Below are positions 806 to 51,888 of a stretch of 64,000 nt of DNA, one piece after another. The notes beneath the pieces are model-generated. The model was not told the DNA's origin. It saw only the letters and a program-made list of their open reading frames with translations, and ran no database searches. Position 1 is the stretch's first letter; every line of letters starts with the position of its first letter. A program made the position numbers and the translations under genes. Source of the stretch: an uncultured Gammaproteobacteria bacterium (GTDB lineage Bacteria > Patescibacteriota > Microgenomatia > CAZETR01 > Amesbacteraceae); the NCBI GenBank assembly GCA_964502885.1, contig CAZCXU010000002.1, positions 27,843 through 91,842 on the forward strand, given 5' to 3'.

Positions 806-857
806 GACCATATTCTACAACTAGACATTGCAATATGCGATTGACTATGATGTAATT

Positions 858-1002
858 TGCGTACATCAAGAGTGACAGTTTCAAAAGAACTGTCCGGCAA
901 CCGAGCACAAAAACCGCCGCGGTGCCAACTTTTCGAGAGAAAGGAGATGTGCCAAGTTTTAATCCTTGGAAAAAGTTCTAACTCTCGAAAGAGAGTTTTT
1001 TT
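858..1002 (+). promoter_or_regulatory. Putative SAM riboswitch (SAM-I/SAM-IV clan variant) with terminator/SD-sequestering hairpin immediately upstream of metK
   Basis: The leader has a P1-like pairing ACAUC(863-867)/GAUGU(~945-949). It has AUCAAGAG-UGACAG, a hairpin GACAGUU-UCAAAAG-AACUGUC, then CGGCAACC (895-902), GGUGCCAA (921-928) and AAAGGAGAUGU. These resemble SAM-I/IV core motifs. The expression platform is AACUCUC-GAAA-GAGAGUU (980-996) followed by a U7 run directly abutting the metK ATG. An alternative CGAGAG (933-938) could pair with CUCUCG as an antiterminator. Confidence 0.5.
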
Positions 1003-13921: not shown

Positions 13922-13925
13922 TATT

Positions 13926-16900
13926 TAACGACCAATTTGCCCCAGGAAACCAAATGCCTCCTGAAGACTACCTACAACTAAGTTAAGAGCATCGTCTGTG
14001 GCCTTGGGAGTAATAGTGACGGTATCTACTGAATAGGCGATGTTCTGAGCCTTATCTTTTGATACGGCACGGAAGTGGTAGACCTTTGATGGAGACAGAC
14101 CGGAAATTATCACCAGGTGGTTGAGTGTCATATTGGTATCTTCCTGAGTCTTTTGGCTATAAGTAGTTCCGGAACCTTCACCAAACTCCACCTGTGAAGT
14201 TGTCAATTCGTCAGTATTCCAGGAAACAACGATTTGGGCGGTCTGGTCAGACTTATTGCCGGAGTTTGTGACTATAGACCCTTCCGCCTGAAGGTCGGAA
14301 ATTAGCGCCGGACGTGTATCTGTGGCGGTATCGAATTTTTGCGGATCAGATACAGCTTCATTCCCGGCTTTGTCACGACCTTTGACGACCAGAGTGTAGG
14401 GAGTTTCGGACTGGAGGTTTTTGATAAGAATGCGATGCAGGCCCTTTACCAGGGTAACGTTTACCTCATCTTTGGCATCGGATGGTTTTCCTGAGGGATA
14501 GTAGGTGACGATGGAACTAACTTCGGTATTGGTTTCCCAACTCACCAGCACAGTCGGCTGGGCAGTGCCTTTTACCTGCTGGATACGAACGGTGGCAATC
14601 TTTGGACGCGGCAGGGTAGAAAAGCTTAGGATAGTCCCCTCGTATTCAGCTGACTCACTGTCAAAAGTATTAATCTTGTAGTAGTACTTTGTGCCGTCTT
14701 CCAAACCTGTCAGCTCCTGAGTGTAGGTGGACTCCGATGTAGAAGTGGAAATAGTGGCTACCCCACCAAAGGCCGTGGTCTTGCCATAATAAATCTTGGC
14801 GCTCGATGCGCCGGTAGTCGTGAACTGGACGTAAGCTGAGGTCAGGCCGGCAGTTTTTATAGCAGCATCTTTGACGGTGGGAGCGGCAGTCGTCGTGAAA
14901 CTTTTCTCTTCGGAGGTGCCTGTATTACCATCTTCGTCCGTCCACTTGGCTTTGTAATAGTAGGTTGTGCCGGGCGAAAGATTGGTCAAGGCAATGGTGT
15001 GACTGGCGACCTGGCTGGAATTACTCGGCTCGACTGACCCATACGAACCGGCGGATGTGCCGAATTGAATTTTTGAATCACAAGTGCGATCGGTAGTCCA
15101 GGTAATAGTGGCCTTTTTGGTAGTTATTGATCCGGCAGTCGGACCGGAAGTGAGCGAAGCTGCTGTAGTGTATTTTCCGGTAGGTGTTTCAGAGACCGAA
15201 CTGGACAAGGCACCGCAATTGTCTGCATCATCGCAAGCCTTTACTTTATAGTAATACTCGATTTGAGACAATCCGGTATCGACATAGGCTGTGCCAGTCG
15301 TAGACCCCTGGTAGGTATATGTCGAATCATTTGTGGAGCGATAGACCTTGTAAGCCGAAATACCGGAACCAACTGATGATGGGGCAGCCCATGAAACCGT
15401 AAGTCTCCAAGTAGAACTGTTTTTTATGGATATATCAGAAACTTCCAAACTGAGAGGTATGCCCGGAGCAGATGTATTGGCTGAAAATGACTGACTGCGG
15501 GCGTTGGCGTAGTCGATAGTACCTCCGTAGATGTCCGGATTTTTGGCGACCACCCAAAAGGTATTGTTTTGCATGGTAGCAAAATTGTCCGGTCCGACCG
15601 CGGTAACTCCGGCGGCAGTCCAGTTGCAGTGTTCGGCAGCATTTTCCGCAGTCGGCTGGCGATTAACCATGTAGCAATAACGAAGTTCTGATGACGCCCC
15701 AAGGTAACTACCAGAATCTGGCGCGTTCCAAGTGAAAGTAAATTCATTGACCGACTTAGTCTCATCGTCCACCGCAAGATTGTTTACCGGCCCAGGACCG
15801 GAACCGGCATAATAAAAAGTGACATAGCTTGGTGAAGCGGTAGCGTTGCCGGCATTATCGATGGCCCGAACATAGAATCTATTGGCCCCGCTGGTATAGG
15901 CGATATCGGTCAGAGAAATTGATGTTGAAGTGGTGGTAGAAGACCAGTCTGCCAATTCCGCCGAAGATGTGGCGGCATATTGGTATCCGGCAAGACTGGA
16001 ATCTGAGTCTGAAATTGCAGTCCAACTAAAACTGAATGAGTTTTGGCTGGTGTAGACTTCGGGGGAAACCGAAATTACGGGAGCTCCGGGAGCCGTGCCA
16101 TCGTACTTGTAAGTAAAAGCATCCGTGGTCTGACTTTTGTTGCCGGCGTTATCCAGCGCCTTGATTAATAAATGCAACTCCCCTGACTGGGTGGCAGTTA
16201 CTGAATAAGTAGTGCCGGCCTGAAAAGCCCCGTCGGTTTCCGGATCCGGATTTGAGTCCGTGAGACCAAAATAGACATAGTAACCAGACACACCAGCTCC
16301 GGTATCAGTGGAACCGTCCCACGAGAAGTAAAGCCGATTTTCGCCATACCACTGGGTATCCCCGCCGGTAATGATATCCCCTGAAGCATTGAGGACACGG
16401 GCTTCGGCTGTATCAGGGTCAGAGGGAGGGGTTGTATCGGTAGTACCATCGACACGGAGAGAATTGATCTGGACCTGCTGTGTACCATCCCCGGAAAGAA
16501 CTGCCCGCCAGAGGATCCCGTTTGAATTGACAGGGAATGAGGAAATATTTGAATTGATGTCTGATACTGAACTGGATTCGCCCAGGGAACTGCAAGCGGT
16601 GGTTGTCCAGGCAGAGTTGTACCAATACTTCCAGGTGGTTCCATTGTCGCTGGATATACAGTATTTAATAGTCCCCACTGCCGATACATCGGCAGTAAAG
16701 CCGCTCCAATCGTCTATCTGGGTAGTCAAACGTTTGGTGACAGGCTGTAGAGTGACGGCTGATGATGAGTATGGAGCAAGAACGAAGGAACTAGGTGATC
16801 TGGCAGTACCAGATACTCGCAGTTCATCAATGACAGCATCCAGGAATCCCCGTCCCGACCAGGTCTGGGAGCTACCATAAGAAGTACCCACAAGAAGCGG

Positions 16901-19900
16901 TCGAGCGGAATTCTCTAATGTGATAGTGCCAGAATCGTTGTTTGTCTGGACGCTACCATCTATATACATAGAAGCAGATGTGCCATTGTAGACTACGGCA
17001 TAATGATGCCAATCAGTCGGAGATGAAATGGCGGAATCTGATTCAACATATAAATTGTCTCCATAAGACCAAACTGTAGTTTCTGTCTGGTTTGAATCTC
17101 CGGTACCGGCATATAACTTACCTTTGAAAGCAGTCAATCCGTAGACGGAGTTTATGTTATCAGTTTCCAACCAAGTGTTGTTGTCCAGACCATCACCTCC
17201 GACCTGAGTCCAGGAAGTGCCGTCAAACCGCCAAACTTCTCCCTCGGCGTCACCACTGGATAGCCCGGCAAAAAGATAGCCGTTGTAAACTGTCAGTGAA
17301 CGGACGATTTCATAATCGGCCCCCCAACCTCCATATCCGGAGTCAGCACCGAGTCCGGCCACCTGCGTCCATGCCGACCCATCGTATTTGTAAACTTTGG
17401 CGTCACCAGTCGAAGCGCCCAGGCCGGCATAGAGTTCGTTGTTGTACATGGCCAGCGAATAGACACCCTCGATACCATGAGTATTCCACCAGGAACCATT
17501 GGCTGGCGCGGAAGTGGCCCCGGCATTGGCGATCTGGGTCCAGGTACCGGCTGTTTTGTTGTAGCTCCAGACATCACCATCACCCGCCGAAATACCCAAT
17601 CCGGCATATAACGTACCCGCATCGCTGATCAAACTGAGTACCGACTCAATATTGTCCGCATCCTGCCAACCAGTAGCGAGGGCGGGAGATTTTCTACCGG
17701 CAATCTGAGACCAGGTGTCTGCGGTGCCGTCGTACTGATAAACTTTTCCATCATCTGTCGAAAGACCAAGACCAGCGTACAAGTAACTGGAGTCGGAGGA
17801 GAGGCTGTATATGGCTTCGATATTGTCGGCATCCACCCATGAACCAGTCTTGCCTGATCCGTGCCCGCCAATCTGCGACCAGGCTGACCCGCTGTATTTC
17901 CATACCTGGCCGTCGTCACTGTTGGTAGTGTTTCCAAGTCCGGCATAAAGATCGCCACGATAATCAACCAAGCTCTCAACGGTTTCAATGGTGTTGTAAG
18001 CCCAGCTACTGTTAGTCTGCTGACCTCCAACAAGAGACCAAGTGGACCCATCGTACTCCCAAACAGTGGAATCACCGGTACCGGAACCTGTACCGGCATA
18101 GAGTTTTCCTGCCCTGGTGCTAAGCGACATAACCCGATCAAGTCCGTTGTAGCCCCAACTACCGTACTTGTACTGTGTACCTACAAGCTCCCAGGAGCCA
18201 GTATATTTCCAAAGCTGGCCCAAACCAGCGCTATTTGTATAAACCCCCGCATAAAGAGTGGAACCATCGAGGAGCATTGACCTGACATAAAGGTAATTAG
18301 CTCCTGTCCAGGTGGAGTTGACACCATCTCCGCCCAGCTTGGTCCAGCCAGCTGTATTGTTACAAGTAGAAGCCAAATCACAACTCCAAACCTCGGCGTC
18401 ACCTCCACTATCTCCAAGGGCGACATACAATGTGTCCGATCCGGCCTGATCATCGACTGCCAATTTCCAGATGCGTTCGAATGCATTGTTCCAGGACTGA
18501 GGCGCTGTACCTGAACCCGTGTTGCCATCAACAAGCGCTGTCCCCCCCCAGGCATTGGCACCGGTGCAGTTGGATGTGTCGGTATAGTTGCAACTCCAAA
18601 CTTCGGCATCACCAGCGGAAGCACCCAATCCTGCCAGTAACTGAATATCCCCTGATGTGTCTGTGTAGCTGGTGATGGTCATAACAGCCTCATAAGCGCT
18701 GTTTGCCCAGCTGCCGAGCGTGCCATCGCCGCCGATTTTTGTCCATCCGGCAGTTCTGGTGCATCCCGAAGACGTATCACAAGCCCACAATTCCGCTTCG
18801 CCAGTCGTATTGCCAAGACCGACATGAATGCGGTCTCCAATGAAATGAATGGCCCAAACCTGATCGTATCCTGAGTTCCAGCTATAGCCAGCAGAGGCAC
18901 TTCCTGAGTCACCGCCAATTTGAGTCCAACCTGTAGTTTTTGTACAAGCCACAGAAAGATCGCAGGTCCAAAGATCTCCTTCTGAAGCCCCATTACCTGT
19001 GCCGACGTAGAGATTTGTTCCATTGACTGCCAGAGCTGTGATCATATTTATGCCGGTATTCCAGCTATAGCCTGCGGAAGTACTACCGGAGTCACCACCG
19101 ATCTGATTCCAGGAAGTCTCTGATGAGTCGTAGTACCAAAGATCGGCATCACCGTCGCCGTTGCCCATGCCGACAATGAGATCATCACCATAGGCAACCA
19201 TCTGGGTAACCTCGTCGTATTGGTTGTCCGGCCAGCTACTGTATAAGGAATTGCCGCCTATGCGGGTCCATGAGTTGGTACCATCGAAACGCCAGACTTC
19301 AGCATCACCATTTGAGTAACCAGTGCCGGCATAAATATATGAACCAACTTTTACCAGAGAACTGACGCTCATCTTTCCGTCGGCGTCCCAACTGAGGCCA
19401 ATTTCACCACCGGCCTTCTGCGCCCATGTCTGGGTGGTGTTTGGCATAGCCTCGTAAACCAACTTGCCGGTCTGATTGTCAAAGTACATTTTGTATTCGC
19501 CTTTGTCGAGAATGTATTGCCTGTCCGGGTGTGTCCCTGCCGAAAAAGAATTATTGAATTTGACCCAAGATTCAAGAGTGTGCGAGCTTGAATCAGAAAG
19601 CGAGACGGCGTTTCCAGTGTCCGGTACGGAAATGTATGTGGCGGAACCATCAAGCTTTAAAGCACCAACTCCGGTACCAGTACCATCCAGTTTACCGGAG
19701 GTCCAAAGAACAGAGGGCGTCGGATTCGGGAGATTAAGCGTCCCATGATTTGAGCCAGTACTGGAGTCAGTGACGGTGGTCCCGGAAAGATCATCAAAGT
19801 GGGCCAGAAATTTGGTATTTGCATCGGATGAGTAGTTTCTGACTTTGAGCCGTGCAGAGGAACCGGTAATTTCGATAAGACTTGAATCGGAAAGAGTGTA

Positions 19901-20089
19901 CTGGTCAGCAGAAACAAATGTCCATTGATAGTGGCCGGCGCCTGATGAGTCGGCCAGAATAGGAGCCACACGCAGAGTTGTAAAAGCACCGGTAAGAAAA
20001 CCTAAAGTGAATCCCAAGACCACCAGAAGATTGAACTGCCACCGCATAAAGGTGACATGGCTATTTATTTTTGGCAGGAAATATGACAT
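13926..20089 (-). CDS. Giant (~2,050-aa) cell-surface protein: signal/anchor, LamG (concanavalin-like) domain interrupted by ~16 beta-propeller-like repeats, then multiple fibronectin type III domains
   Basis: N-terminal TM LLVVLGFTLGFLTGAF. The first LamG half is ATYISVPDTGNAVSLSDSSSHTLESWVKF. There are ~16 repeats of ~50-55 aa with consensus LYAG(L/T)G..GDAEVW.YDGS.WTQIGG. The second LamG half is DWHHYAVVYNGTSASMYIDG...GFLDAVIDELRVS. The C-terminus has at least 5 Fn3-like modules (YKVYRS...YYYKVKA; TYYYKAKWTDEDGN; TKYYYKINTFD; TPYTLVVKGRDKAGN; KVYHFRAVSKD). Confidence 0.85.
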
Positions 20090-20284
20090 GAAAATGGCTT
20101 TTAAATCCGGTTTACTGACAATTTTTACACTTAGGCCACGCAGCAATCTCCAATGAAGTGGCTTTCTTATGTATGGTAACTATATCCCGCAGAGATAATT
20201 CCTGTAAATAAGGTGTTATCGCCAGTTTTTTTTAAATTCGATTAGATAACCTGCCGGATATCCATTCATGATATTCTGATAGTG

Positions 20285-23026: not shown

Positions 23027-23055
23027 GGAGTCAAAAAGATTCCGGGGGAAACTCC
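23027..23055. terminator. Bidirectional intrinsic terminator between the convergent secreted-protein gene and yibE/F
   Basis: Stem GATTCCGG(23027-23034)/CCGGAATT(23043-23050) with loop GGGAAACT, followed by TTTTTT. An A-run lies on the other side. Confidence 0.55.
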
Positions 23056-23063
23056 GGAATTTT

Positions 23064-24182
23064 TTATTGATTTCTGCGGGAGAGATACGCGGCAGAGAGA
23101 AAAGCCGTAAGCGGAACAGCCATCACCAAACCAATACTTCCGCCAATGGTACGCACCACCTCTTCGGCTATCATTTCGCTGTTTAGAATTGACCATACCG
23201 GATAGTTGTTTGGGTTCAGTATGGCGAACAGAAACAAAGGCAAGGCCGAACCGGCATAAGCGAGAGCAAGAGTATTCACCATTGAAGAGATATGCTCTCG
23301 GCCGACAGTCATCCCAGATGAGAAAAGATGTGAAAATTTCAATCTGGGATTTGCTTTTATTAACTCAAAAACGGACGCCGTCAAACCGGTAGTGATATCG
23401 TCGAGAGCTCCCAAGGAACCGATTATGACTCCCCCAAGATACAATCCTTTGAAATTGATGTGCGCAGTTTGGCCGAACTGGAGTGTCAAAGCCTCATCCG
23501 TACCCAGTCCGGTGAGCGATACCAGCTCGACAAACAACATGGACAAAACCCCGGTTACGGTAAGCGTCACAGCGGTGGACAACAAAGAAATTGATGTGCG
23601 CACCGAAAATCCATGAGACAAGTAAATGCTAACTATCATGATAAAAATGCTTCCCACGATGCTAACAAACAAAGGATCGCGACCAGAAAGTATCTGCGGA
23701 ACTATAAACCTAATGATGACAAAAAGGCCCAATAAAAGTCCCCCTATTGACCCCACTCCCCGCCAACCGCTAAGAACTATAACTAAAACAAAAAACAGGC
23801 CCACGATTGTCCATAGTTTGTCCAAGCGGTATGAGTCAATAATCTGATAATCCAGCTGATTTTCAGGCCCGGGAACCCTTACCAAAACAACAATCTGCCC
23901 TACTTTAACCAACTGATTTTCTTCCAGATAAACAACCTTGCCGTGCTCTATCCCGACTGTCTCACCAGCCATATCACCATCAAGAATCTTTACATCGATA
24001 ATCTGATATTTTCTGGTGAAGCCGTTTTCATTTTTTTGGCCGGATTCAAATATTTTTACTACTTCAGCTTTGTAAAATTTTTCCCTGTGGATAGCGCTCC
24101 CCTCCTGAGCAGAGACTGAAATACCAAAAACGCCGGATACACATATAAAAGTCAGGCAGATCAGGAAGATTTTTTTGCGCAT
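23064..24182 (-). CDS. YibE/F family membrane protein
   Basis: An N-terminal signal is followed by a soluble domain, then about 7 TM helices with G-rich segments (GSIGGLLLGLFVI, GSLGALDDITTGL) typical of YibE/F. It starts 23 nt after copA and is probably co-transcribed. Confidence 0.75.
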   Translation of the reverse strand: MRKKIFLICLTFICVSGVFGISVSAQEGSAIHREKFYKAEVVKIFESGQKNENGFTRKYQIIDVKILDGDMAGETVGIEHGKVVYLEENQLVKVGQIVVLVRVPGPENQLDYQIIDSYRLDKLWTIVGLFFVLVIVLSGWRGVGSIGGLLLGLFVIIRFIVPQILSGRDPLFVSIVGSIFIMIVSIYLSHGFSVRTSISLLSTAVTLTVTGVLSMLFVELVSLTGLGTDEALTLQFGQTAHINFKGLYLGGVIIGSLGALDDITTGLTASVFELIKANPRLKFSHLFSSGMTVGREHISSMVNTLALAYAGSALPLFLFAILNPNNYPVWSILNSEMIAEEVVRTIGGSIGLVMAVPLTAFLSAAYLSRRNQ

Positions 24183-37148: not shown

Positions 37149-40100
37149 TTAGGGCAAATTTGACACGTCGAAGTCGATGTAGACTGTGCCTGCGGGTTTG
37201 ACACTGGTGGGGATGAGACTGGACATGCTTATAGTGGACCAGGCCGACCAACTATTGGTAGATACTGTGAGTGTCCGTTTGTAGACATTCTGACCGTTTG
37301 AAGATAGAGCGTATTGGTGAATCAAATCACTGGTTTCCTGATAATAGTCGATTGAAGTAGCTGAATCACCGTTTGGTAAACCGGTAATTGTGGCGTAGGT
37401 TGTGGACCAACCGGACAAGGGAGTGTAGCCTGATCCGTTCCAAGGAGCTGTGCGAGCATAGAAGACCTGGTCTCCTGTGCTGGGCTTGGCATAAAGAACT
37501 GACTGCTTAATGAGGGGGGTGCCGGAATTGGTGAGTACTTCTTCATCAAATCCATACTGAGTCCTGCCTACCGCCGGCAAGTCCAAGGCCGACGAAGCCC
37601 AGGCGTTGTACTGTCCGTAATAACTGCCAGCCCAGGGAGCTTCACGGTAATAGACACGACCATCGCCGGCATATAAGAAAGATTGTTTGAGGGCCTTGTC
37701 TGACTGCTGGCTTTTTACGACATAGTTGAGCGACTTTACTGGGACATTGATACTCATCTCGGTGACATTGCGGGAAGTCCAGGGAGTCCAAGAGTTGTCA
37801 TCTCCCTGATAACGGGTAAGAATTTCGGTGCCACCTGCAACAACCGCTGTCTGAATGACCTTTTTGTGCGGGACAGTGAAACGATAACTGGGCGCAGATG
37901 ACCAGGCTCCGGAATACACGGCGTGAACCCAAATATTGTAGGTGCGGCCCGGTTGGAAATGGTAACTAAATGATGATGCAGATATGGTCGAACAAATATC
38001 TCCTTCGGAAGAATTGATACAGTTCCAAGGGTCACTTTCATCGTTTATGCGAAGACCTGACTCAGTAGCTCCAGCTGGAAGCGTCCAGGAAATTGTCTGT
38101 TTGCCGGCATTTTGAGCTGAAACTGTGAGGTTGGTAGGCGCGAGTAATGGGGTAGGCGTGGGGGGCGGACGAGTGGGAGTGGGAGTATTGGTAGGGACGA
38201 TGGTCCCAGGAACAGTTACTACTCGTGAAACGGACCCTGACCATCCACTGGCATATACAGCATGGACCCAAATGTTGTAGGTACGGCCAGCCACAAAATT
38301 ATGAACATGAGATGAACCTGAAATGGTAGAGCATGCGTCTCCAGGGTTAGGAATACAGGAACCGTTCCATGGATTTGAGGTATCGTCTACCCTGACCCCT
38401 GATCCAACAGCCCCAGAGGGAAGATTCCAACTAATAGTCTGATTTCCAGGCGAGACGCTACTAACTGTTAAGTTATTGGGCAAGGGAAGTGGTGTGGGTG
38501 TAATAGCTCCCTGAAGCAAATCGTTTATCTCAACCATGTAAGTATCCTTTCCATAGTTTATGGCTGAGTCATTGCGCATCTGTCTGGTAGCTCCGGTGGT
38601 ATTGTTTTTTAATGTGACGTTTCCGGTGGAATTGACTGTAACCTGAAGCTCGTAAGTACGACTTACTCTTCCATTTGCAGGATTATCGACATGGTAGTAA
38701 TAGATGGATGACTTGGGTTTATTTGCCGTGGACGCACTGTTTGCAGCCGCAAAAGTCGCGGGGGAAATGTAAATATGGGCCCACATCTTTTTGTAATCGT
38801 TTTCATCGGCCATAATCAAAATCTCCTTTTCTTTCATAAATACCGGATAATTGATCAAATTTGCGGAACTGTGGTTGTAGAGTATTTTTCCACCAGCGCC
38901 ACCCGGGGAAACAATCTGAGATTCAACTTTTAGCAAGGACTTCCAGGTGCCAGCAGGGAAGTACACATATGAATCATTGGCGGTGGCGTCTTCGAATATC
39001 GGCCTGACCAATAGGGCATTGCCAAACATGAATTCGTTGCGAGGGTCTTTTTTGACGGCGTTTGTGACCGAAAGATCTGGATTATAAAAGTCATATAGCT
39101 TATATACCTCAGGATCGTTAGGATAATCGAAGAAAAGCGGTCGGGTGACGTACATTGACCCAGTCTCGTAGCTGCGCATAGCCTGATCATAGGCATATTG
39201 ATGCAATCTGTTCCTGAGTTTCCCGTAAAATATTAAAGCGTTTTTCACTGTAGTATTGGAGGTTTTGTCGAAAGGTACTGAGAAAATGGTGGCTCCCTGA
39301 AACACAGCTAACTGATTGGAGCGGAGAAAGACGTTGTTGTTTATGGTTCTGTTTGTGTTGCGAGTGCCATCTGGATTGAGAACGCCCTCATTATAGACAT
39401 CGTTGTAGAAAGTGACATTTTGTACTACCGGGTATCCCGACATAACTTCAGTAATTGCAGAGTCCAGTTGATACTTAAGTATGTAAGTGAGACGTTGGTC
39501 AAAATGGCCACGAATATCTTCGTGTATGTAGTCGGGAACTACCACGTCGGCAGGATTTGCGATCCAGGAATTGCGGGCAAGAATTACGAACTGATTTCCC
39601 AATCTATTGGTATAGTGCGGCATAAAGAGCGGGCCATAATTGTCACCTAAGTTTTGGGGTACTCCTGCAGGAGCAACTGTGGGAACACGATTTGGACCCA
39701 TAAACGAAACCACTTTGGCCTGATCATGTGCAGTCATGTCGTCAAACTTGACTCCTCCAAAATTGCCATAACCGGTCAAGGAGGCCCCATCGCCAGAACG
39801 AATAAGGTCAATCCAGCGATTAATCACCTGCGCAGTCGGAGAAAGCAAATAATGATCATCGCCGGGATCATTGCGGTTTGGGCCCATATACATGCGATTT
39901 GCGTCTATGAGTGGGTTACTTATCCCTACCTGCGAGAACTTGCTGAGGATTAAATTTTTATGCTTGAGATTCTGCGAATCATTTGCGGCATTGTCCAGTG
40001 ACTCATATTGAGTGACTCGCTGACGCATGCCTATCAAGGGAACCGTACCTCGACCTGTCAATGCTTTGTTGGGATGATTGGAAGTGCTGGTCAAAAATGA

Positions 40101-41189
40101 GTACCACTGACTTAGGCCGCTAATTCCACCCCAACGATCCTGATTTACCAATAATGAGTCAGTGGTGCGGATAGGATATTGAGCAGGTCCCCCAACATCC
40201 TGAGGTCCACACCCAGGCAGCTTATCACTGGCCCAGTATCCAGAACCGATTGTCGCAGTGGTAAGGACAATTTTCTGGTCAAGATACCAGTTTACCCTGG
40301 CCATGGCATCGGTGCGATTGGCAGCACAACCGAGATCTCCAAACGTCTCCCACCCGGGACCAAAAGCCATATAGGTAGGCTCTTTGTCGTAGTAGCCCAG
40401 CTCCGTTTTGATTTGCTTGTATGCCTGATAAACTTCATCAAGAGTGGGTTTTTTGATGATGATCAGCTCTTTTTGAGTAGCAAAGTTGGTTTGCCCATCC
40501 CCCAGTTTCATTACTATGCAGGTATTGCGATCTCCGCAACTGAATTCATTTGTACGCGACAATCTAACAACTTTTGAATAGGGCTGCAGGTAGGCAATCA
40601 GCAGCTTCTGTTCGGGGATGACAAAGATGGGGGTCCGCATCCGGCATGACGATGCCCACTTTTCATTTCGCTCCCTGCCTGAGGCAGTAATTTTGGTGTC
40701 GACACAGTGGCTGTAGCTGAAATTTTCATCGGTAAAATCTGCCAAAGCGGCCTGATTGGTAATGACGTGCATACCGGCTCCAAAAACCTGAGGCGCTGGT
40801 TTACCTGTGATAAATGGCAGTCTGAATTCATATCTTTCCTGATTGCAGTTGGTTGTATAGGGAGCACAAGTAAAACCACTAGCCTTGACAATAAAGGCAC
40901 CCTCAGACACCTTGGAGACTGTAAGCTTGGCGTTGTCGGCACTAGTGTTGTTTCCAAAAATAAGATCTCCCCCCGTCACTCTCTCAAGCTCGGTGATATT
41001 GGAAGTGGAGGTGCTAGCAGAAGCAGAAAGATTTGTCTGAGTTTGAGTCAATTGTCTGGTGACACCTACAATGGAAAAAAGACCAAATACAAACAATATT
41101 CCACCAAATATTAAGCCGTGTTTTGGATTGGATATTTTGAGCGGAGGAATGTGCACTGACTTACGAGGTGATGTTAAATAGAAGCCCAT
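37149..41189 (-). CDS. Membrane-anchored giant glycoside hydrolase, GH31-like catalytic region with C-terminal tandem ~114-aa beta-sandwich repeats
   Basis: N-terminal TM GLIFGGILFVFGLFSIVGV. The central region has GH31-like segments GVKFDDM, MFGNALLVRPIF and YVYFPAGTW. Two tandem repeats end in GRTYNIWVHAVY. Confidence 0.65.
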   Translation of the reverse strand: MGFYLTSPRKSVHIPPLKISNPKHGLIFGGILFVFGLFSIVGVTRQLTQTQTNLSASASTSTSNITELERVTGGDLIFGNNTSADNAKLTVSKVSEGAFIVKASGFTCAPYTTNCNQERYEFRLPFITGKPAPQVFGAGMHVITNQAALADFTDENFSYSHCVDTKITASGRERNEKWASSCRMRTPIFVIPEQKLLIAYLQPYSKVVRLSRTNEFSCGDRNTCIVMKLGDGQTNFATQKELIIIKKPTLDEVYQAYKQIKTELGYYDKEPTYMAFGPGWETFGDLGCAANRTDAMARVNWYLDQKIVLTTATIGSGYWASDKLPGCGPQDVGGPAQYPIRTTDSLLVNQDRWGGISGLSQWYSFLTSTSNHPNKALTGRGTVPLIGMRQRVTQYESLDNAANDSQNLKHKNLILSKFSQVGISNPLIDANRMYMGPNRNDPGDDHYLLSPTAQVINRWIDLIRSGDGASLTGYGNFGGVKFDDMTAHDQAKVVSFMGPNRVPTVAPAGVPQNLGDNYGPLFMPHYTNRLGNQFVILARNSWIANPADVVVPDYIHEDIRGHFDQRLTYILKYQLDSAITEVMSGYPVVQNVTFYNDVYNEGVLNPDGTRNTNRTINNNVFLRSNQLAVFQGATIFSVPFDKTSNTTVKNALIFYGKLRNRLHQYAYDQAMRSYETGSMYVTRPLFFDYPNDPEVYKLYDFYNPDLSVTNAVKKDPRNEFMFGNALLVRPIFEDATANDSYVYFPAGTWKSLLKVESQIVSPGGAGGKILYNHSSANLINYPVFMKEKEILIMADENDYKKMWAHIYISPATFAAANSASTANKPKSSIYYYHVDNPANGRVSRTYELQVTVNSTGNVTLKNNTTGATRQMRNDSAINYGKDTYMVEINDLLQGAITPTPLPLPNNLTVSSVSPGNQTISWNLPSGAVGSGVRVDDTSNPWNGSCIPNPGDACSTISGSSHVHNFVAGRTYNIWVHAVYASGWSGSVSRVVTVPGTIVPTNTPTPTRPPPTPTPLLAPTNLTVSAQNAGKQTISWTLPAGATESGLRINDESDPWNCINSSEGDICSTISASSFSYHFQPGRTYNIWVHAVYSGAWSSAPSYRFTVPHKKVIQTAVVAGGTEILTRYQGDDNSWTPWTSRNVTEMSINVPVKSLNYVVKSQQSDKALKQSFLYAGDGRVYYREAPWAGSYYGQYNAWASSALDLPAVGRTQYGFDEEVLTNSGTPLIKQSVLYAKPSTGDQVFYARTAPWNGSGYTPLSGWSTTYATITGLPNGDSATSIDYYQETSDLIHQYALSSNGQNVYKRTLTVSTNSWSAWSTISMSSLIPTSVKPAGTVYIDFDVSNLP
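37870..38540 (-). repeat. Tandem duplication of a ~342-nt coding unit (two homologous beta-sandwich modules) inside the GH31-like gene
   Basis: DNA ~37921-37967 is homologous to 38263-38310 (tgaacccaaatattgtaggtgcggcc versus tggacccaaatgttgtaggtacggcc). The protein repeats are ...SFSYHFQPGRTYNIWVHAVY and ...SSHVHNFVAGRTYNIWVHAVY. Confidence 0.7.
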
Positions 41190-51860: not shown

Positions 51861-51888
51861 AACCCTCCACAAAAAAGGAGGGTTTTTT
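51861..51888. terminator. Hairpin plus U-run. Likely an intrinsic (bidirectional) terminator for relA/spoT on the minus strand. On the plus strand it occludes the Shine-Dalgarno of a small ORF
   Basis: AACCCTCC(51861-68) ACAAAAAA GGAGGGTT(51877-84) then TTTTTT (plus) or TTGTTCTTTTTTT (minus). The 3' arm AAGGAGGG is itself a perfect SD 7 nt before GTG 51890. Confidence 0.5.

Follow-up and report, generated by a model that had tools for sequence, protein, structure and literature searches.

A SAM-I/IV-class riboswitch in a Patescibacteria metK leader with a predicted intrinsic terminator adjoining the start codon

The 5' leader of metK in a Patescibacteria/Microgenomates bacterium carries a riboswitch of the SAM-I/IV class that probably works as a transcriptional OFF switch. 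We describe it from the window, the whole stretch of 64,000 nucleotides that was analyzed, and all coordinates without a locus prefix refer to that stretch. Judged by its sequence, the leader belongs to a known class and is not unusual within it; the binding of SAM is suggested by the conserved core and by the metK context. Its expression platform appears to consist of an intrinsic terminator standing flush with the start codon and of an antiterminator strand supplied by P4. The feedback OFF logic of this arrangement is as expected for metK.

RESULTS

Class and architecture of the leader

Positions 858 to 985 of the plus strand match the Rfam family RF01725 (SAM-I/IV riboswitch) over model positions 1 to 99 of 99, scoring 47.9 bits where the gathering score is 41.1. 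When the whole 64-kb window was compared with 4,227 Rfam families, this was the sole match above the gathering score (E = 1e-4; in the local scan, E = 4.5e-7), and Rfam clan competition leaves SAM-I/IV as the best model for these positions. An earlier note on this DNA had read the leader as SAM-I/IV-like and without a k-turn, and had named a covariance-model scan as the check, with the lack of any SAM-clan model above threshold, together with the lack of conserved structure in related genomes, as the outcome that would speak against it. The scan bears the reading out. In view of the full-model score above the gathering score, the E-values, and the metK Pfam domains encoded downstream, the resemblance to RF01725 is not due to chance.

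The SAM-clan core is in place, with J1/2 AAGAG, P3 GCAACC/GGUGC, and the P1-closing AGAUG (865-872, 895-902, 921-928, and 945-950). All the strings that the earlier note had quoted, namely, AUCAAGAG (865-872), CGGCAACC (895-902), GGUGCCAA (921-928), and GAUGU (946-950), lie where it had put them, and a string check agrees with it that the leader does not contain GGAGGGA. The elements around this core are collected in Table 1.

What defines SAM-I/IV is that its P2 lacks an internal loop (Weinberg et al. 2010, Genome Biol 11:R31), and the P2 of the window is likewise a continuous helix of 8 bp (874-881/887-894) with neither internal loop nor k-turn. The SAM-I-IV-variant Stockholm file of the same publication also includes a P4 in the junction, a hairpin following P1, and a pseudoknot that joins the P3 loop to the 3' tail (SS_cons_1). 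In the window, a P4 hairpin (929-944) separates P3 from the P1 3' strand, and a further hairpin stands directly 3' of P1 (952-956/965-969), albeit a weak one with 5 bp and a loop of 8 nt. Possession of P4 in SAM-I/IV, as opposed to its lack in SAM-IV, is noted in the SAM-IV cryo-EM paper (PMC6890682). The earlier note had it that P4 was missing. This was mistaken: positions 929-944 fold into CUUUUC-GAGA-GAAAGG, precisely at the junction-hairpin position of the published SS_cons. The consensus line of RF01725 in Rfam, for its part, draws no helix in the P3-P1 junction.

As for pseudoknots, the one at the tip of P2 is probably missing from SAM-I/IV too (supplement of Weinberg et al. 2010), and since the P2 of the window has no k-turn, a pseudoknot of its P2 loop is probably absent here. 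No convincing partner was found in the window for PK-2, the pairing of L3 with the 3' tail. The two candidates, AAAAC (910-914) with GUUUU (956-960; 5 bp) and AAAAAC (909-914) with GUUUUU (995-1000; 6 bp), are weak and A-U-rich, and neither recurs among the terminator-type relatives described below. In the related leaders L163 and L174, UUAUUUUU pairs with AAAAAAUA as PK-2 in our own reading of the alignment. Apart from this L3-tail pseudoknot, the window matches the published SAM-I/IV architecture at each point.

Table 1. Features of the metK leader and its flanks in the window
Feature	Positions	Strand	Sequence	Remarks
NAD-dependent epimerase/dehydratase gene	start 796	-		Divergent from metK
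Promoter-like site	822-851	+	TAGACA-18 nt-TATGAT	10/12 matches; such sites no commoner than in shuffles
P1, 5' strand	863-867	+	ACAUC	Pairs with 946-950
J1/2	868-872	+	AAGAG	Follows P1 5' strand
P2 hairpin, 8 bp	874-894 (874-881/887-894)	+	GACAGUUU-CAAAA-GAACUGUC	No internal loop or k-turn; folding, Rfam
P3, SAM-clan core	896-926	+	GGCAACCG ... CGGUGCC	Rfam, folding
L3, loop of P3	907-915	+	ACAAAAACC	
P4 junction hairpin	929-944	+	CUUUUC-GAGA-GAAAGG	Alone -3.6 kcal/mol; position as in published SS_cons
P1, 3' strand	946-950	+	GAUGU	Pairs with ACAUC, 863-867
Hairpin 3' of P1	951-970 (952-956/965-969)	+	CCAAG-UUUUAAUC-CUUGG	-5.2 kcal/mol; present in relatives and published members
A-rich tail	970-979	+		Follows the 3' hairpin
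Predicted intrinsic terminator	980-997, U run 996-1002	+	AACUCUC/GAGAGUU, 7-bp stem, GAAA loop	-8.4 kcal/mol
metK, S-adenosylmethionine synthetase, 366 aa	1003-2103	+		Three S-AdoMet_synt Pfam domains, E 4e-60 to 6e-36

The gene upstream of the leader starts at position 796 on the minus strand, so that the 206-nt intergenic region is a divergent promoter region. Given the promoter-like site within it, a transcript start at about 858 to 860, a few nucleotides ahead of P1, is plausible. An 88-aa ORF with a TTG start (857-1123) was considered as a leader peptide and rejected, as it overlaps both the aptamer and metK and is without support. On the other side of the gene, metK is adjoined by a gene of the staphylococcal nuclease family (2120-2761), and a gene of this family also lies next to metK in the related locus L168, there upstream and divergent (L168:649-1305), which makes for a small conserved neighborhood. 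Elsewhere, the window contains two very long minus-strand ORFs, at 13925-20146 (2,073 aa) and 37149-41189 (1,346 aa).

Terminator and antiterminator as alternative folds

The hairpin that the earlier note had placed against the metK start is found as described, with its stem at 980-997 and a U run (996-1002) that stops at the base preceding the ATG (1003). The notation GAGAGUU-U7 in that note counted two of the U residues twice: the sequence can be written as GAGAG with U7 behind it or as GAGAGUU with U5. The stem is modest, with only three G-C pairs among its 7 bp.

The 5' arm and loop of this hairpin (982-991, CUCUCGAAAG) can alternatively form 10 pairs with the P4 loop and the strand on its 5' side (930-939, UUUUCGAGAG), which therefore double as the 5' strand of an antiterminator. 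The energy of this duplex is -13.3 kcal/mol, compared with -5.0 ± 2.1 kcal/mol for shuffled sequences, of which 3 in 1,000 did as well, and among all upstream sequence 930-939 is the best partner of the 5' half of the terminator. The minimum-energy fold changes with the length of the RNA. In a transcript ending at 975 it is the aptamer; at 991 the antiterminator pairing (930-939/982-991) takes over, and P1 and P4 are opened; and at 997 it is the aptamer together with the terminator. Over the whole leader, the competing states come to -44.3 and -42.7 kcal/mol, a gap of 1.6 kcal/mol. With the two so nearly equal in energy, a ligand that stabilizes P1 and P4 would tip the decision toward termination. 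The predicted structures thus include what is expected of an attenuator with an intrinsic terminator: a G+C-containing stem-loop, a U run, and a mutually exclusive pairing upstream.

Two further hairpins with U runs are located between gene ends in the window, at 23034-23065 (14-bp stem) and 51861-51884 (8-bp stem). Both are strong, bidirectional, and flanked by A and T runs, and the presence of such canonical terminators indicates that this genome makes use of hairpin-plus-U signals for termination. A loose terminator pattern showed no enrichment over shuffles in the window. We know of no characterization of termination by a Patescibacteria RNA polymerase. The possibility that the hairpin at 980-997 terminates a minus-strand gene was rejected, the upstream gene being divergent.

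Related metK leaders share the terminator and the P4 pairing

Two large contig collections were scanned with MetK. The matches listed were almost all distant (47 to 55% identity), with L058 the only close locus among them. Close relatives were gathered instead by exact-protein look-up, one protein at a time, and the closest MetK, P0002 (75%), is not among the leaders compared. The MetK of the window is identical to one NCBI protein, encoded on a contig of 97.5 kb, and its best named relatives (~66% identity) come from Candidatus Daviesbacteria and Patescibacteria.

In L170, L173, L175, and L176, whose MetK proteins are 64 to 72% identical to that of the window, the aptamer, A-rich tail, and terminator follow in the same order. 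In each of them the 5' half of the terminator pairs best with the P4 region, at -11.6 to -17.7 kcal/mol, and between 0 and 36 of 1,000 shuffles did as well. A run of six or seven U residues directly follows the terminator stem in all five leaders, that of the window included, and in four of the five (the window, L173, L175, and L176) it reaches to within 0 to 2 nt of the AUG; L170 has 12 more nucleotides in between.

The base changes among these leaders point in the same direction. At 933/988, the U-A pair of the window is replaced by C-G in L170 and L175 and by U-G in L173. Likewise, in L176, a C-to-U change at the equivalent of position 986 is matched by a G-to-A change in its terminator partner and by another in its antiterminator partner. 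Such compensatory changes speak for both of the alternative helices, with the covariation consisting of few events because there are only five leaders of the terminator type. The earlier note had asked for a comparison with metK leaders of related genomes, and the recurrence of the terminator and of the P4 pairing in four relatives, with compensatory changes, answers it positively.

These data also bear on the suspicion that the leader owes its appearance to chance, is a decayed relic, or contains in AACTCTC-GAAA-GAGAGTT an operator that a protein recognizes on the DNA. The inverted repeat is indeed perfect in the window, and the Rfam score is just 6.8 bits over the threshold, but the model is matched over its full length (local E-value, 4.5e-7), every helix is intact, and the architecture has been kept at the same gene in diverged relatives. 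Furthermore, the G-U pairs in L173 preserve pairing in RNA and not a palindrome in DNA, which argues for an RNA element, and with the upstream gene divergent there is no minus-strand gene end here that would need a terminator. We consider all three of these explanations extremely improbable. The metK leader is a real, functional-looking riboswitch.

Other members of the same MetK clade (L161, L163 to L165, L168, L169, and L174) have a SAM-I/IV-like aptamer without a terminator, and their AUG follows a few nucleotides past the 3' hairpin. The SAM-I/IV model of Rfam gives 52.3 bits for L173, 44.5 for L168, and 41.4 for L175; L161, with 27.6 bits, falls under the Rfam threshold, and L163, L170, and L174 were not detected by Rfam. 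L176 and L058 are SAM-I by Rfam. The comparison of helices covered 13 leaders; eight belong to this clade, and the published alignment contributed the other five. The core pairs of P3 do not vary over this set, while each of the P2, P4, and post-P1 positions carries a hairpin of differing sequence (for P4, in 12 leaders besides the window). The evidence here is the recurrence of a hairpin, and the figure of 100% canonical pairs is circular, since every sequence was folded on its own to obtain its helices. Alignment of the leaders with MAFFT was not structure-consistent. A candidate search pattern for Microgenomates metK leaders is CATCAAGAG...CAACCG...CGGTGC...GATG.

Two public annotations of metK in these relatives call the start too early, inside the riboswitch. 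The call at L174:1484 uses the ATG in GAUGC of the P1 3' strand, and that at L170:166 uses a TTG within the U run of the terminator. The genes in fact begin at L174:1514 and L170:178. Separately, the motif CUAGACUCA is found in the P3 loop of L161 (1429-1437) and of L170 (55-63) and, in L166, a short way ahead of the aptamer. A kissing interaction of the motif with the CUAGG loop of the 3' hairpin would be conceivable in L161.

A transcriptional switch as the preferred mechanism

In the mechanism that we propose, bound SAM would hold P1 and P4 in place. With P4 held, 982-991 would be left without a partner, the terminator hairpin (980-997) would form before the U7 run, and RNA polymerase would let the transcript go at about 1000 to 1003, ahead of any metK codon. 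Without SAM, 930-939 would pair with 982-991, and this pairing would open P4 and P1, block the terminator, and permit read-through. In read-through RNA that refolds at a later time, the hairpin would end 5 nt from the AUG and probably also hamper the binding of the 30S subunit. Such an effect on translation would amount to steric occlusion in a genome without Shine-Dalgarno (SD) usage, not to SD sequestration. We infer the binding of SAM, the act of termination, and the translational component from the class of the aptamer, its helices, and the two conserved, nearly isoenergetic pairings.

Possibly, the switch is purely translational, the hairpin at 980-997 never terminating transcription and only barring the ribosome from the start region when SAM is bound. 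A hairpin that ends 5 nt ahead of the AUG and whose stem is worth just -8.4 kcal/mol would fit such a role. So would the sister leaders L161, L163, L168, and L174, which have no terminator and an AUG a few nucleotides after the 3' hairpin, and the published members examined (four sequences), in which an SD sequence comes right after the aptamer and no terminator is annotated. A sequestering hairpin, however, needs no U run, and yet an uninterrupted one follows the stem in five of five leaders. In the window, no long ORF other than metK has a run of six or seven U residues directly before its start. Moreover, the folds change with transcript length as they would in a co-transcriptional terminator switch. 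We therefore regard a purely translational switch as unlikely and favor the transcriptional OFF switch, to which occlusion of the start region may add.

In the earlier note, AGAGAG of the purine-rich 3' arm of the terminator was named as the only SD-like element of metK, so that one hairpin could be terminator and SD sequester together. We examined SD usage in 48 long, nonoverlapping ORFs of the window. An SD core (GGAG, GAGG, or AGGA) lies 5 to 17 nt upstream of 2 of the 48 first starts and of 1 of the 31 ATG first starts (3%), compared with 11% of internal in-frame start codons, which served as the control. Duplex energies with an anti-SD, assumed to be generic as the 3' end of the 16S rRNA of this organism lies outside the window, are no better on average at real starts than at controls. 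The 20 nt before starts contain 65% A+T, against 54% overall. It seems that this genome initiates largely without SD, and the lack of an SD at metK would then be normal.

What speaks for the assignment is that a purine-rich 3' arm is found 7 nt before the AUG, the classical SD spacing, in the window (GAGAG), L173 (GGGAG), L175 (GAGAGG), and L176 (AGAGG), and that the region upstream of metK reaches -4.7 kcal/mol with the generic anti-SD, where the genome mean is -1.9 kcal/mol. But the purine run is already forced by the pairing with CUCUC, which in turn is forced by GAGAG of the P4 loop. With the purine arm dictated by pairing and a genome that hardly uses SD sequences, we do not accept SD sequestration as it had been stated, and we think it very unlikely that the arm has this double role. 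It is plausible, in contrast, that a hairpin covering positions -23 to -6 gets in the way of initiation where, as in this genome, translation depends on A/U-rich leaders free of structure.

DISCUSSION

The leader is closest to SAM-I/IV (RF01725), with which it shares the SAM-clan core, a P2 lacking any internal loop, a short junction hairpin P4, an extra hairpin 3' of P1, and the position upstream of metK. It departs from this class in several respects. Known members come from marine metagenome sequence, whereas the host here is a member of the Patescibacteria/Microgenomates, and the four published sequences examined place an SD just past the aptamer with no annotated terminator, whereas the window has a predicted intrinsic terminator and an antiterminator derived from P4. 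Also, the class pseudoknot between L3 and the 3' tail is not evident in the window. A crystal structure of a metagenomic SAM-I/IV member was reportedly presented by Trausch et al. in 2014.

With SAM-I (S-box, RF00162; for example, metK and yitJ of Bacillus subtilis), the leader has in common the binding core and a four-way junction with P4. The logic would be the same as well: SAM steadies the aptamer, the antiterminator is barred, the terminator forms, and metK is off. SAM-I has in its P2 a k-turn internal loop that lets the P2 loop pair with J3/4; the P2 of the window is uninterrupted. Unlike SAM-I, the window has an extra hairpin after P1, and its U run abuts the start codon without an SD-containing spacer. 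The source of the antiterminator strand differs too, being mainly the 3' strand of P1 in SAM-I and the 5' strand and loop of P4 here. SAM-IV (RF00634, Actinobacteria) resembles the window in the SAM-clan core and the hairpin 3' of P1, which in SAM-IV belongs to the PK-2 subdomain (PMC6890682). That class has no P4, an internal loop in P2, and a PK-1 pseudoknot (PMC6890682); the window, in contrast, has a P4 and a continuous P2.

Nothing here will surprise a specialist, and knowledge of SAM riboswitches is unchanged. What is modestly new is the Patescibacteria host, the intrinsic-terminator platform, the use of P4 as the source of the antiterminator strand, and the lack of a gap between terminator and start codon. 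In the literature we found nothing specific on riboswitches in the Candidate Phyla Radiation and no usable earlier account of a terminator hairpin that masks the ribosome site as well.

Within this one clade, metK leaders are of SAM-I type (L176 and L058), of SAM-I/IV type (the window, L173, L175, and L168), or of an odd SAM-I-like type (L162, L166, and L171). Conceivably, they record an interconversion in which the peripheral architectures of SAM-I and SAM-I/IV changed into each other while the expression platform stayed homologous, a suggestion that we make tentatively and hold to be doubtful at present. L176 (1357-1503) is SAM-I by Rfam (45.0 bits) and has a k-turn-like loop in P2, and its post-P1 hairpin is a decayed remnant, CGGCUUAUACGGC, the counterpart of which in L175 (612-771) is CCGGCUUAUUUGGACCGG. 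L176, L175, L173, and the window have in common an A-run, a terminator of the UUAAC type, and a U run that extends up to the AUG. Trausch et al. are said to have found in 2014 that common descent of the two classes is not backed by sequence phylogeny. If the interconversion were true, it would argue for such common descent, and the terminator would double as a block to initiation in SD-less genomes.

The odd leaders deserve a description of their own. L162:1371-1503, L166:1380-1503, and L171:1385-1503 (and also L167 and L172) have a SAM-I-like core that scores 38.3 bits with RF00162, against a threshold of 44.4. In the type represented by L162, L166, and L171, P2 is a three-way junction of two hairpins and not a k-turn helix, and P1 extends with its 3' strand into the start codon or right up to it; the L166 strand, AUAUGAC, contains the AUG. 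From their sequences, they look like a very compact variant that would sequester the start codon.

In summary, a well-formed SAM-I/IV riboswitch with a clear terminator/antiterminator design can be added from the poorly studied Patescibacteria. It may be of use in annotation, two relatives having had their metK starts called within the riboswitch, and it could serve as a compact natural gene-control part in these bacteria. For the biology of the organism, it indicates that in a genome not using Shine-Dalgarno sequences a leader can do without a spacer between the terminator and the start codon.
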